NCBI GenBank assembly: GCA_030390025.1
Contig: CM059452.1
Span: 8,246,001-8,310,000 of the forward strand
Source of the DNA: Squalus acanthias
Lineage: Eukaryota
Direction: 5' to 3'
DNA: 64,000 bases
Shown here: positions 28,717-53,440 of the stretch, in pieces
Layout: each line of letters begins with the position of its first letter
Position numbering within the stretch: the stretch's first letter is position 1
Notes under the pieces: model-generated
Database searches by the model: none
What the model was told of the DNA's origin: nothing
What the model saw: the letters and a program-made list of their open reading frames with translations, nothing else
Translations under genes and position numbers: made by a program

Positions 28717-29221
28717 ATGCGGCTACTCAGCATCTGGGCTGTGTGGGGGGCATTTCTGACAGGTAATTGTGGACCAAACACATTTCATCTTTTCTCTCAT
28801 TTCTAACATGGTTTGAATCTGAGTTTTAAACACCCGTCGGTCTGATCTTTTCCTGTTTGAACATGTTTTTCAGATCTGAGTCTTGGAGATTCTGTCACTC
28901 AGCCGCTGTCCTCAGGAGTGAAGACAGAAGGAGAAGCGGTGACTTTAAGCTGTACCTATGATACTACACAGAGCAGCTATTATTTATACTGGTACCGGCA
29001 ACACCCAGACACACAGCCCGAGTTTATACTGAGCAAATACTCGAGCGGTTCTGAAGATAAAGCAGATTTTGCTAAAACCCGTTTCTCTGCAGATCTCCAG
29101 ACCTCGACTAAATTCTTCAGTTTAACCATCTCGGGGCTGCAGCTGACTGACGCTGCCGTGTATTACTGTGCTCTCTGGAACTCACAGTGATGGAAAGCAG
29201 TCTCAGCCCTGTACAAAAACT
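28717..29221 (+). CDS. TCR alpha/delta V segment, intact (leader 28717-28762, V exon 28874-29182, 23-RSS 29183-29221)
   Basis: GDSVTQP..VTLSC..LYWYRQHP..DAAVYYCALWN. RSS CACAGTG-23-ACAAAAACT. Confidence 0.93.
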
Positions 29222-29577
29222 GCCATTGGACTGTAGGGCGGAGCTCCTGTCTGTTGGGGTTGTGTGGAATCGCGGGCAGATGCAGCCACAATGAGCAGCG
29301 CGCTGTCAGGCGCTCAAACACACACCGAGAGGAAACCAAATTAACCTCGGATCAAACTGTCACCCAACTGTTTCCAGGAGCGGCCGAGAAAACATACTGC
29401 AGAATCCAATCGGCCCGAAAGATCGATCACAGAATGAACCGACCGGTTAAACTGTCCTTTCTGCTTCTGATCAGCTGTTTTAACTTCAAAGTCATAGATC
29501 GATGTTCAGATCAGCTCCGAGAAAGAGGTTGCTGACAGCGCCAGGAACTTCCTGCTTGTCGCTCCGTGTTTTTATTC

Positions 29578-30748
29578 GTTTATGGGATGTGGGCGTCACT
29601 GGCAAGGCCAGCATTTAAGCCCGTCCCTAATTGCACTTGAGAAGGTGCTGGTGAGCCGCCTTCTTGAACCGCTGCTGTCCCGTGTGGTGAAGGTCCTCCC
29701 ACAGTGCTGTTAGTTAGAGAGTTCGAGGATTCTGACCCAGGGATGATGAACGAACGGTGATATACTTCTAAGTCAGGATGATATGTGACTTTGAGGGGAA
29801 CGTGGAGGTGGTGGTGTTCCCATGCGCCTGCTGCCCTTGTCCTTCTAGGTGGTAGAGGGCGTGGGTTTGGGAGGTGCTGCCGAAGAAGCCTTGGCGAGTT
29901 GCTACAGTGCATCTTGTAGATGGTACACACTGCAGCCACGGTACGCCAGTGGTGGAGGGAGTGAATGTTTACGTTGGTAGATGGGGTGTCAATCAAGCGG
30001 GCTGCTTTGTCTTGGATGATGTCGAGCTTCTTCAGTGTTGTTGGAGCTGCACTCATCCAGGCAAGTGGAGAGTATTCCATCACACTCCTTACCTGTGCCT
30101 TGTAGATGTTAGAAAGGCTTTGGGGAGTCAGGAGGTGAGACATTTGCCGCAGAATACCTAGCCTCTGACCTGCTCTTGTTGCCACAGTATTTATGTGGCT
30201 GATCCAGTTAAGTTTCTGGTCAATGGTGACCCCCAGAATGTTGATGGTGGCGGATTCGGCGATGGTAATGCTGTAGAATATCAAACGGCGATGGTTAGAC
30301 TCTCGCTTGCTGGAAATAGTCTTTGCCTGGCACTTGTGCGGCGCGAATGTTACCTGCCACTTATCAGCCCAAACCTGAACGTTGTCCAGGTCTTGTTGCA
30401 TTCGGGCATGGACTGCTTCATTATCTGAGGAGTTGTGAATGGCACTGACCACTGTGCAGTCATCAGCGAACATCCCCATTTCTGACCTTATGTTGGAGGG
30501 AAGGTCATTGATGAAGCAGTTGAAGATGGTTGGGCCTAGGTCACTGCCCTGAGGAACTCCTGCCGCGATGTCCTGGGGCTGTGATGATTGACGTTCAACC
30601 AAGACAACCATCTTCCTTTGTGCTAGGTATGATTCCCGCCAGTGAAGAGTTTCCCCCCAATTCCCATTGACTTCAGTTTTACTAGGGCTCCTTGATGCCA
30701 CACTCGGTCAAATGCTGCCTTGATGTCAAGGGCAGTCACTCTCACCTC
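29578..30748 (-). mobile_element. Non-LTR retrotransposon (CR1/L2 group) RT C-terminal fragment
   Basis: GVPQGS and FADD RT motifs in ORF 29580-30701. Confidence 0.9.
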
Positions 30749-30832
30749 ACATATAGAATAGGATCTGGTTCCCATATTCTGCCTGTGTGTGTTATTTCAT
30801 TCCGTGTATTCCTTCGAACCCGGGTATTTAAT

Positions 30833-52269: not shown

Positions 52270-52490
52270 CCGGCGGACTGTTAACTGTAAAATACAGAGA
52301 TGAAATTCCACAGCGCTCTCAAAACCCTGATTCCGACTCCCCTAAGAGTGCATCAGTGAGATATTTCAGTTTGTGCTGGTAATTTTACAAAGCTATGTTA
52401 CTTCTACCCATTATTTGCATTCAAGCCTCATTTTCTTCGCCGCTCCTGCCATGGCAGTGATCGCAGGTGTGAGCAAACTCGCTGTCTTGG

Positions 52491-52570
52491 GGTTTTTGTA
52501 TGAGGAGCTCGCTCTGTACAGCACCGTGACCTCCTGTTGTACCACAGTGACAGGAACCCGCACAAATACT
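52491..52570 (-). other. IgH D1 segment (52529-52542, GTACAACAGGAGGT) flanked by 12/22 RSS
   Basis: CACAGTG-12-ACAAATACT on the V side; CACGGTG-22-ACAAAAACC on the J side. This is the shark cluster pattern. Confidence 0.93.
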
Positions 52571-52922
52571 GCACTCACTCTCTGATTAACGCTGTTAGAG
52601 ATAAAATCGCTCAACCAATAAAAGGTTTTAGCAGATTTTTATTATAATCTGTTCATGAATTTTTCTCAGAAGGACAGAATTGGACCAAAATTAGAAACAG
52701 TATTAAAGCTTTCATTGAATCCTCGTTGCCAGTCCCGGGCACTGTAAACAGTAACCATGGGTATACATCGATACAAACTTAGTTAATGTGTCTTTTATTC
52801 TTAGCCAGTTTATTGCTGTAGCAAATACATCTTTCCCATCTCAGTTAAAACACATCTCTTGATATATTTTACACCATTACTGACCTAGGATGCGATGGAA
52901 GTTGCTGCAATTACTCTCGTTC

Positions 52923-53440
52923 GGTTTCTGTACGAGCCCTGGGCTTGTTCGGGTCGCTGTGGGTCTCTTGCACAGTAATAGATGGCGGTGTCTTCGGTCC
53001 TCAGGTTCTTCATGTCCAAAGCGAAGATGCTGTTTGAAGTATCTTTGGACGCAGTGAATCGACCCTGGATCCCTGGGGCATAGCCATTGTTCGATGAACT
53101 GTAGTATTGAGCCACGAACTCCAGCCTCTGTCGGGGAACCTGTCGGTACCAGTACATCCGATAGCTGCCAAGATCGAACCCGCTGGTTTTACAGGTCAGT
53201 CTCAGGGAGCCTTCGGGACTCCTGGTCTCTGCCTCTGGCTGAGTCAACACGACATCCGACTGGACACCTGTAAAAACAATCAAAAACCCCGAGGATTAAT
53301 CCTGGTGTAATGATTCCTGACTCTGTAACATTCCAGAGAGAGACTAACACTGAGACAGTAACAGTGAGAGACTTGGACAATAAAAACTACTCACCGGATA
53401 AGAAAGCCAGCAACAGACTGAGAGAAATCGCTGACCTCAT
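52923..53440 (-). CDS. IGHV: IgM VH segment, intact (leader 53395-53440, V exon 52962-53267, 23-RSS 52923-52961)
   Basis: [77 protein letters not shown]-23-ACAGAAACC. Confidence 0.96.

Follow-up and report, generated by a model that had tools for sequence, protein, structure and literature searches.

Organization of the IgM cluster

The window analysed here is a stretch of 64,000 nucleotides on Squalus acanthias scaffold CM059452.1 (C29), which was compared with scaffolds C449, C911, C3620 and C559. Its minus strand carries an IgM heavy-chain cluster in which the leader, VH, D1, D2, JH and six RSSs are all present, as an earlier sequence-only reading had stated. The leader exon (53395-53440) is open and has a GT donor, and the VH exon (52962-53267), also open, encodes CDR1 GSYRMY and CDR2 QYYSSSNNG and is followed by a free 23-RSS (52923-52961). 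D1 (52529-52542, or 52491-52570 with its 12/22 RSSs), D2 (52229-52241, or 52201-52269 with its 12/12 RSSs) and JH (51790-51837, or 51790-51876 including its 23-RSS) lie beyond it, the last with a GT donor. The RSS spacers measure 23/12/22/12/12/23, and this copy has the leader, VH, two Ds, JH and 12/23-compatible RSSs of a shark IgM minicluster. Single-sequence structure prediction modelled the VH as a beta-sandwich (pLDDT 71), which is uninformative on pairing, and a PDB sequence search with the VH returned only generic VH/VHH constructs.

The constant region had been described as dead, which holds for Cmu1 to Cmu3 but not for the exons beyond them. Cmu1 was not found in the window cluster, Cmu2 (43533-43843, minus strand) lacks one base near 43662 and contains two in-frame stops, and Cmu3 (41067-41376, minus strand) carries an additional base at the 5' end; Cmu4 with its secretory tail (39747-40138) and TM1 (37133-37260) on the same strand are open, the TM2 exon (36985-36993, VK-stop) is intact, and the AG/GT sites are retained. 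The Cmu2 lesion is a base loss in a short T run, with a substitution also at the site, and the start of Cmu3 combines two paralogous 5' types, a similar hybrid being found in C29_9535. Both lesions are private to the window copy, which lacks the four open Cmu exons of a shark IgM minicluster and is a pseudogene member of that family. Two segments of the J-C intron (47380-47760 and 45880-46130) were searched for degenerate C or V exons with 12 Ig/TCR queries and gave no significant tblastn match; the best hit in the intron (E = 0.055) lay outside both.

Junction with TCR V genes and the surrounding array

The nearest TCR alpha/delta-type V (plus strand; leader 28717-28762, V exon 28874-29182, 23-RSS 29183-29221) is open, encodes a V-set domain and matches, besides itself at 100%, many 85-96% paralogues on C29, C449 and C911. 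Its RSS lies 7.8 kb from the end of IgM TM2 at 36985, and positions 1-55704 contain no N-gap, the N runs of the window being confined to 55705-56425; both points agree with the sequence-only reading. The interval contains LINE-type retroelement pieces on the minus strand (29580-34415), which comprise a fragment of RT (29580-30707) and a longer element (30937-34415) that bears an esterase-like ORF1 and an endonuclease-RT, and, between these and TM2, a locus-specific spacer element (34560-34960). The V-to-spacer distance is 5672 bp in the window versus 1957-2138 bp in eight paralogous junctions, and ~3.5 kb of the 7.8-kb gap is copy-specific LINE sequence in surplus of those junctions. On C29 (5.98-10.28 Mb), C449, C911 and C559 lie 41 of the 42 matches to the spacer element, which appears to mark a duplicated IgM-plus-TCR-V unit. 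Misassembly of the 29-37 kb join was rejected because the V-spacer-IgM junction recurs in eight other copies on three scaffolds, C911 included.

The sequence-only reading had also argued from polarity, the VH 23-RSS facing the TCR array with the orientation of the minus-strand TCR Vs. This argument carries no weight because the 11 TCR-type Vs of the window lie on both strands (six plus, five minus, the one nearest to IgM being plus), V 23-RSSs are unable to join one another, and Ddelta is not on C29.

Across C29, 31 IgM Cmu4 exons (94-100%) are distributed on both strands from 5.97 to 10.27 Mb, or ~4.3 Mb, including a frameshifted Cmu4 at 7.515 Mb that was matched in two pieces. TCR Vs are present in 24 of the 30 intervals between these IgM clusters and 20 of the 31 Cmu4 exons lie no more than 20 kb from a TCR V, so the join does not single out the window cluster as had been supposed; this interleaving rules out an isolated minilocus bordering a TCR array. 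The join is real but ordinary, and an interleaved layout has already been published for the great white shark, where table S1 of PMC12227049 places IgM clusters, pseudogenes included, among TCR Vs on chromosome 27. In the available part of that article, the AgRC (Flajnik et al. 2025, PMC12227049) comprises the same IgM miniclusters, some of them pseudogenes or V-less, among TCR alpha/delta Vs on both strands, and a catshark scaffold is given in the order IgM-TAILV-TCRD-TCRA, as on C911. Like the AgRC, the C29 region shows IgM clusters alternating with TCR-type Vs over megabases; it differs in being denser (31 clusters in 4.3 Mb) and in that the repeated IgM-spacer-V unit is resolved, and the same part of PMC12227049 mentions neither a Cmu1-less lineage nor the framework-2 changes described below.

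Among the 31 clusters, Cmu1-4 are open in 23, a C exon is broken in five and Cmu1-3 are absent from three, two Cmu4 defect flags of one scoring having been overruled by another reading. Five clusters lack a VH, and in these a minisatellite is fused to a JH that has no RSS; in four of them the upstream stretch that was fetched contains a TCR-V end or RSS. TCR-V-headed IgM genes were rejected as functional chimeras, the V of C29_8459 (the one read base by base) containing a stop.

TCR delta and alpha loci

A TAILV is a stand-alone Ig-like V upstream of Ddelta, without D, J or C of its own. The 29 TAILV-like Vs that adjoin Ddelta on C911 fit this definition; the window VH, with its own D1, D2, JH and C exons, does not stand alone. 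A single Cdelta and a single Calpha were located, with Ddelta and Jdelta, on the unplaced scaffold C911, and neither was found on C29; no D, J or C was found in the 70 kb past the right end of the array. AgRC-type linkage of the C29 array to TCR delta/alpha D, J and C segments would depend on C911, where the same IgM-V junction (junction cassette 95%) lies upstream of Ddelta, Jdelta and Cdelta. At C29:5.803 Mb a VH-D1-D2 set is followed by a 500-N gap, with no V in the 139 kb to its right, and the flanking marker DAD1 lies on C8, which is of no help in placing C911.

Trans-rearrangement of shark IgH V genes to TCR delta, and TAILV, are documented (Criscitiello 2010; Deiss 2019; as reported in the accessible portions of PMC12227049, PMC3457774, PMC5931798 and PMC6795676). 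The window VH resembles these systems, as there described, in having a free 23-RSS within a TCR alpha/delta V region and in Y37; it differs in being of the IgM family, in its 72% nucleotide identity to TAILV-like Vs and in its attached D, J and C.

A Cmu1-less IgM lineage

Cmu1 was removed by a ~0.58-kb deletion, whose junction (44863-44868, minus strand) has a 6-bp microhomology and is common to the window, C3620:86769 and C449:758443, or 3 of the 40 scored hits. In the two other copies, C3620 and C449_750, Cmu2-4 and TM are open. In C3620 the leader, VH, JH, Cmu2-4, secretory tail and TM are all open, JH runs in phase into Cmu2, and a single fused D carries 12/12 RSSs. The framework 2 of C449_750 is canonical and its V heptamer has become CTC; as this copy keeps an open C behind such a heptamer, an open C is no proof of use. 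Throughout the clusters Cmu3 and Cmu4 are homogenised (the window and C3620 show no difference over Cmu4), so that staying open costs little. The window copy is a mosaic, with an upstream flank and VH like those of C3620, a V-RSS and V-D1 interval of the C29_9126 type and a Cmu2 like that of C449_750.

A CH1-less IgM cluster is also known from the spotted ratfish, where CH1 was lost and the product was proposed to be light-chain-free (Rast 1998, as cited in the part of PMC3149040 at hand). As described there, that holocephalan gene has a duplicated CH2, whereas the lineage reported here has no CH2 duplication and exists in three copies, of which the window copy is frameshifted.

The contrast of an intact V with a dead C had been attributed to selection kept on VH and relaxed on C, but this was unsupported. 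The VH differs from that of its sister in C3620 by 1.0%, against 1.2-3.6% in the flanks, and is no better conserved; the sister with the same VH has open Cmu2-4 and TM. The chance that both point lesions fall on the C side is 0.47, and neighbouring clusters comprise five with dead V and intact C and four with intact V and dead C. For dN/dS of V against C the differences are too few, and Cmu3 and Cmu4 are homogenised. The "V intact, C dead" pattern shows no selection.

Framework 2 of the VH

Framework 2 (53110-53151, minus strand) contains Y37, R42, R44, F47, V48 and A49 (Kabat numbering), with L45 kept, and its 99% sister in C3620 shares Y37, R42, R44 and F47, so that three of the four VL-contact positions are altered. 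These are the only two VHs with Y37/R44, and both belong to Cmu1-less clusters. Framework 2 accounts for 6 of the 8 framework amino-acid changes (P = 0.0003 post hoc, 0.005 after multiplication by 16), or 4 of 6 when events are counted (P = 0.009 before correction for 16 lineages), with eight non-synonymous and no synonymous differences from the commonest type. What is new at this locus is the three-copy Cmu1-less lineage together with a VH of altered pairing surface; the TCR V-IgM join is known biology, and it is this lineage and its remodelled VL-contact surface that are of interest.

Y37 was found in all 12 TAILV-like Vs that were read and in all 19 TCR-type Vs, but in only 2 of 28 IgM VHs and none of nine further VHs read. 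At codons 37-40 all four differences from C29_7528 match TAILV-like Vs. Over codons 20-41 the window VH is 3 nt and its sister 2 nt from a TAILV-like V (other IgM VHs, 5-12 nt), whereas from codon 42 onward it has 14 differences to the nearest IgM VH versus 66 to the nearest TAILV-like V. Against the 11 of 29 TAILV-like Vs that were aligned it shows 71-74% nucleotide identity and is nested among IgM VHs; it does not belong to the TAILV sequence family, and only codons 20-41 are TAILV-like. Y37, which the sequence-only reading did not mention, ties this VH to the TAILV-like Vs that neighbour Ddelta, from which gene conversion probably transferred it. Framework 1 and CDR1 are nearly identical in IgM VHs and TAILV-like Vs, against an overall identity of 72%, which suggests germline exchange between B-cell and T-cell Vs.

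Origin and possible use of the cluster

The favoured reading, with a probability of about 0.5, is that the window cluster is a decaying, mosaic IgM duplicate whose VH would donate to TCR delta no more than incidentally. The IgM clusters probably spread by duplication of an IgM-plus-TCR-V unit, and the window cluster was likely patched together by gene conversion, with Cmu1 presumably lost once and the window copy decaying after that loss. In framework 2, the F47-V48-A49 block may have been acquired from the C29_9591 lineage and Y37 through a short conversion tract donated by a TAILV-like V, while R42 and R44 would represent two point changes, with no selection needed. In B cells, V-D-D-J joining would yield a message stopping in Cmu2; in thymocytes, the VH 23-RSS could join the Ddelta 12-RSS by the known IgH-to-TCR-delta route, as could the VHs of neighbouring clusters. 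The earlier proposal of a TCR-delta V donor thus survives in part, as no normal IgM is possible and the free 23-RSS is usable in principle with a Ddelta 12-RSS, but without the unique join and the selection on which it had drawn. Against decay stand the framework-2 excess, the changes at three of four VL-contact positions and the restriction of Y37/R44 to Cmu1-less clusters. The coincidence of Y37/R44 with Cmu1 loss is what selection would give, yet it involves one lineage and one event. The altered VH lineage likely arose by drift and gene conversion, although it might point to an antibody that needs no light chain or to a V passing to T cells.

The first of these would be a heavy-chain-only IgM lineage, in which C3620 makes a light-chain-free V-D-J-Cmu2-3-4 with a VHH-like framework 2 and the window copy is a dead allele or duplicate. 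The shared deletion junction, the open C3620 copy with its JH in phase to Cmu2, and the retention in both Y37 copies of D and J RSSs, which only IgM use would require, are consistent with this, as is the ratfish precedent. Y37 and F47 are among the VHH hallmarks listed in the portion of PMC9181593 consulted, and G44 is now charged; however, R44 is not the listed E44 and the hallmark L45 is unchanged. F47 also occurs in two clusters retaining Cmu1, TAILV-like Vs are a simpler source of Y37, and the third Cmu1-less copy combines a canonical framework 2 with its altered heptamer. Cmu2 of the two open copies differs by ten non-synonymous changes to one synonymous, and the openness of the homogenised Cmu3 and Cmu4 is cheap. 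Compared with camelid VHH and heavy-chain-only IgG, as presented in the available parts of PMC9181593, PMC6812646 and PMC3149040, the likeness lies in the absence of CH1, Y37, F47 and a charged residue 44, and the differences in the kept L45, an R instead of E at 44, an IgM instead of an IgG isotype and an exon deleted from the genome; the remaining C exons are open in C3620 and C449_750 but not in the window. A second shark heavy-chain-only antibody, independent of IgNAR, with Y37 converted from the TAILV array, a working C3620 and a null window copy, is considered unlikely.

Equally doubtful is a selected TCR-delta V, a new TAILV, in which Cmu1 loss freed the cluster and framework 2 became a TCR pairing surface as C decayed. 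The distribution of Y37 and the 2-3 nt distance of codons 20-41 from a TAILV-like V point in this direction, as do tyrosine or phenylalanine at position 47, found in 15 of 19 TCR-type Vs, and R44, present in 2 of 7 TAILV-like Vs; a free 23-RSS is retained in both Y37 copies, whereas the canonical Cmu1-less copy has an altered heptamer, and C911 shares the IgM-V junction upstream of Ddelta, Jdelta and Cdelta. Against it, Cdelta and Calpha are absent from C29, 29 TAILV-like Vs already adjoin Ddelta, and 8 of the 28 C29 VHs are open with a free 23-RSS, so the window VH is not special. Neither R42 nor the retained L45 is TCR-like (16 of 19 TCR-type Vs have P45), V is not conserved over C, and the C of the sister is open.

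If true, these two readings would imply a natural VH-based single-domain IgM or the birth of a dedicated Ig-like TCR-delta V, respectively, and the diagnostic 42-nt framework-2 tag together with the JH-to-Cmu2 junction could separate both from neutral decay. No run recorded as RNA was listed as containing the window VH, the highest share being 0.39 of 28 words. When contigs from 4 of the 24 listed runs were aligned to 43480-53460 at 86% likeness, they showed V-D-J joints of relatives, a loose end running from JH into Cmu1, and canonical framework-2 loose ends; a JH-to-Cmu2 joint was absent among the 15 displayed of 1064 joints, which has no bearing on the window locus.

It is very improbable that the frameshifts in Cmu2 and Cmu3 reflect consensus errors or the null allele of one haplotype in a collapsed repeat, with the window locus and C3620 one gene: over ~12 kb upstream of VH the two are collinear with 96.4-98.8% identity, much as other pairs of C29 and unplaced scaffolds are 98-99% alike, and the lesions fall in a short T run and a hybrid exon start, but a substitution also marks the Cmu2 site, C29_9535 has a like hybrid, two Ds face one fused D, and the DNA beyond TM is only ~85% alike.

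The Cmu1-less IgM lineage

The leader, VH, D1, D2, JH and six RSSs of the window IgM cluster are all present as the sequence-only reading had claimed, and the closest named relatives of its VH are IgM VHs of horn shark, sawshark and bamboo shark (74–77%). The constant region, described as dead, is so only in part: Cmu1 is absent and Cmu2 (one base short, containing stops) and Cmu3 (one base too long) are frameshifted, but Cmu4, the secretory tail, TM1 and TM2 have kept open reading frames. The J-C intron contains a pair of related, degenerate segments (47380–47760 and 45880–46130, minus strand) that neighbouring clusters have too; neither gave a significant Ig match.

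Approximately 0.58 kb including Cmu1 is missing, with the breakpoint at a 6-bp microhomology. This deletion junction was found in 3 of 40 scored matches (of 1097 candidates), namely the window and, on two other scaffolds of the assembly, C3620:86769 and C449:758443; a search for Cmu1 returned none at the window, C3620 or C449_750 clusters. In the latter two, Cmu2–4, the secretory tail and TM are all open. The C449_750 V heptamer is altered; in C3620 the V RSS is free, the fused D is flanked by 12/12 RSSs and JH has its RSS, so that rearrangement and in-frame splicing of JH to Cmu2 would be possible. Upstream of VH, C3620 and the window match at 96.4–98.8% for ~12 kb, but the D region and the sequence past TM differ between them; C3620 is an allele or recent duplicate of the window locus. 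The window copy is a mosaic: the 3' flank of its V differs by 4% from the C29_9126 IgM cluster, elsewhere on the window's scaffold (C29), versus 29% from C3620, and its Cmu2 by 1% from C449_750. The reading we favor, at a probability of about 0.5, is that birth-and-death duplication would have multiplied the cluster and gene conversion would have made the mosaic, leaving a Cmu1-less, decaying copy.

Framework 2 of the VH

The window and C3620 VHs carry Y37, R42, R44, F47, V48 and A49 (Kabat) in framework 2; among 22 further open VHs in this family, the usual residues at these positions are V37, G42, G44, W47, L48 and V49. Framework 2 holds six of the eight framework changes (post hoc P = 0.0003; 0.005 when multiplied by 16 lineages); counted as events, it holds four of six (P = 0.009), which is non-significant over 16 lineages. 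Positions 37, 44, 45 and 47 are VL contacts and VHH hallmarks (PMC9181593 and PMC6812646), and three of these four are altered. Y37 is found in 12 of 12 TAILV-like Vs, which lie beside Ddelta on scaffold C911, in 19 of 19 TCR-type Vs (one being the Ig-like V at C911:373.9 kb), and in 2 of 28 IgM VHs plus none of nine more read of 13 retrieved. The framework-2 residues point to TCR use as well as to VHH. The F47-V48-A49 block is common at the nucleotide level to the C29_9591 cluster, a sister lineage (93/88 support) that has kept Cmu1. Over codons 20–41, the window VH is 3 nt and the C3620 VH 2 nt from a TAILV-like V, versus 5–12 nt for other IgM VHs, with overall VH identity to TAILV-like Vs of 71–74% (11 of 29 aligned). 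Conversion from the TAILV-like array would be the simplest source of Y37.

A heavy-chain-only IgM lineage would account for the Cmu1 deletion, the open sister and framework 2, and has a precedent in the Cmu1-less IgM of ratfish (PMC3149040), the only mention of a Cmu1-less IgM among the results listed for elasmobranch searches of a literature that excludes most subscription papers. Such a lineage is nevertheless unlikely, as L45 is unaltered, F47 also occurs in clusters bearing Cmu1, and Y37 has a putative TAILV source. The Cmu1-less lineage with a remodelled framework 2, putatively part TAILV-derived, is probably novel.

Although the TAILV-like Vs (C911 373–519 kb) and C29 IgM VHs are 72% identical overall, they have runs of 21–45 identical nt in common within framework 1 and CDR1, suggesting that T-cell and B-cell V pools have exchanged sequence by gene conversion in the germline.

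Relationship to the TCR delta locus

The sequence-only reading proposed that the cluster was becoming a TCR-delta V donor, with selection kept on VH and relaxed on C. The 12/23 rule would allow the window VH to be joined to Ddelta via the IgH-to-TCR-delta route reported in sharks (PMC3457774, PMC5931798 and PMC6795676), and by RSS reading seven other open C29 VHs are equally able to do so. Neither lesion counts nor divergence show any V/C asymmetry of selection: five clusters are V-dead/C-intact versus four V-intact/C-dead, the chance that two random point lesions both spare the V side is P = 0.47, and divergence between the window and its sister is 1.0% in VH, 3.2% in the leader intron, 1.7% in the J intron and 1.2–3.6% in the upstream flank. 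Selection of the VH as a TCR-delta donor, which Y37/F47 and the free RSS would fit, is therefore doubtful, the sister's C being open as well.

The single Cdelta (C911:582982) and single Calpha (C911:782362) lie on C911; a search for both found none on C29, and no D, J or C was found in the 70 kb to the right of the C29 array end (10.32 Mb). C911 bears in order IgM Cmu1–4, TCR Vs on both strands, 29 Ig-like Vs, a D flanked by 12/23 RSSs, Js, Cdelta and Calpha. The Ig-like Vs are spaced at ~4 kb with 55–64% identity to the window VH, and are termed TAILV-like (TAILV, TCR-delta-associated Ig-like V) by position. The IgM-V junction cassette is also found on C911 at 95%, so C911 and the C29 array probably belong to one locus. 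On C29 a single VH-D-D lacks a C region (G000:C29:5801878-5803428); it ends at a 500-N gap, and C911 (C911:1-420) starts ~120 bp before a Cmu1; the two may join. Two unusual single Vs with 23-RSSs, at C911:362.8 kb and 373.9 kb, directly precede the TAILV-like array, one of them Ig-like (44% to the window VH). In other vertebrates, DAD1 and the TCR alpha locus are linked; the DAD1-family gene here is at G000:C8:78.89 Mb, on neither C29 nor C911. In nurse shark, an IgH minilocus is reportedly embedded in the TCR alpha/delta locus.

Interleaving of IgM clusters and TCR Vs

The window covers C29:8246001-8310000. N is absent before position 55705, confirming that the 29–37 kb stretch of the window is free of gaps, and the last TCR V near the IgM cluster is an open plus-strand V followed by its 23-RSS (29183–29221), with the open IgM TM2 exon at 36985–36993. 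The polarity shared by VH and the minus-strand TCR Vs proved uninformative because the 11 TCR-type Vs of the window are split six plus and five minus. Cmu4 searches located 31 exons on C29 (5.97–10.27 Mb, both strands). By TCR V positions taken from the 107 C29 matches among 150 listed for one TCR V query, a lower bound, TCR Vs are present in at least 24 of 30 intervals between C29 IgM clusters, and at least 20 of 31 Cmu4 exons sit within 20 kb of one. The IgM-TCR V join is real, but it is the rule in the C29 region and a known arrangement: TCR-type Vs between IgH clusters have been published, and in table S1 of that paper IgM clusters, some of them pseudogenes, alternate with TCR Vs along great white chromosome 27 (PMC12227049).

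The TM2-to-V spacer is locus-specific (41 of 42 matches on C29 5.98–10.28 Mb, C449, C911 or C559), and the V-spacer-IgM order recurs in eight copies, at a V-to-spacer distance of ~2.1 kb versus 5.7 kb in the window, where the extra length is a LINE insertion. This recurrence argues against misassembly of the 29–37 kb join and for duplication of the IgM-plus-V unit. Assembly error or a null allele is a very improbable explanation of the Cmu2 and Cmu3 frameshifts. The long LINE copy (30937–34415, minus strand), which is private to this junction, encodes an ORF1 of esterase type, and its endonuclease-RT frames measure 611 and 345 aa.

Census of IgM clusters

The census covered 20–40 kb surrounding every other Cmu4 exon of C29 (30 in all), together with a C-less C29 VH and nine clusters on unplaced scaffolds; TM1, often outside the stretch covered, was left out of the counts, and Cmu4 flags for C29 clusters 6669 and 7776 in one scoring were overruled by another. 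Cmu1–4 are open in 23 of the 31 C29 clusters, while five have a broken C exon and three lack Cmu1–3. Among 28 C29 VH exons (5.80–10.27 Mb), 18 are germline-joined (VD, VDD or VDDJ) and 10 have a free 23-RSS (8 of these open); the full six-RSS set is found in seven. Germline-joined clusters and Ig-TCR linkage are supported by PMC5192425 and PMC3964593.

A tandem pair at C29 7.529 and 7.549 Mb has an identical joined VDJ, and five C29 clusters are VH-less. Upstream of one of these, at G000:C29:8443157-8444027, a stop-bearing TCR V precedes a 60-bp tandem array (14.4 copies) whose unit is the heptamer and spacer of that V's own RSS; in the VH-less cluster beyond, JH no longer has an RSS and runs directly into a 67-bp minisatellite to which it is fused. 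Related RSS repeats occur at C29 7.90, 8.04 and 9.55 Mb. C1978 has three exons resembling Cmu2 (73%), at 241912, 369889 and 615517, all of which contain a TGA; no Cmu1 or Cmu4 match on C1978 is among the matches listed. The IgM cluster at G000:C130:537001-557000 has a doubled Cmu3-Cmu4 pair, and paired Cmu4 matches suggest the same in four C130 clusters.
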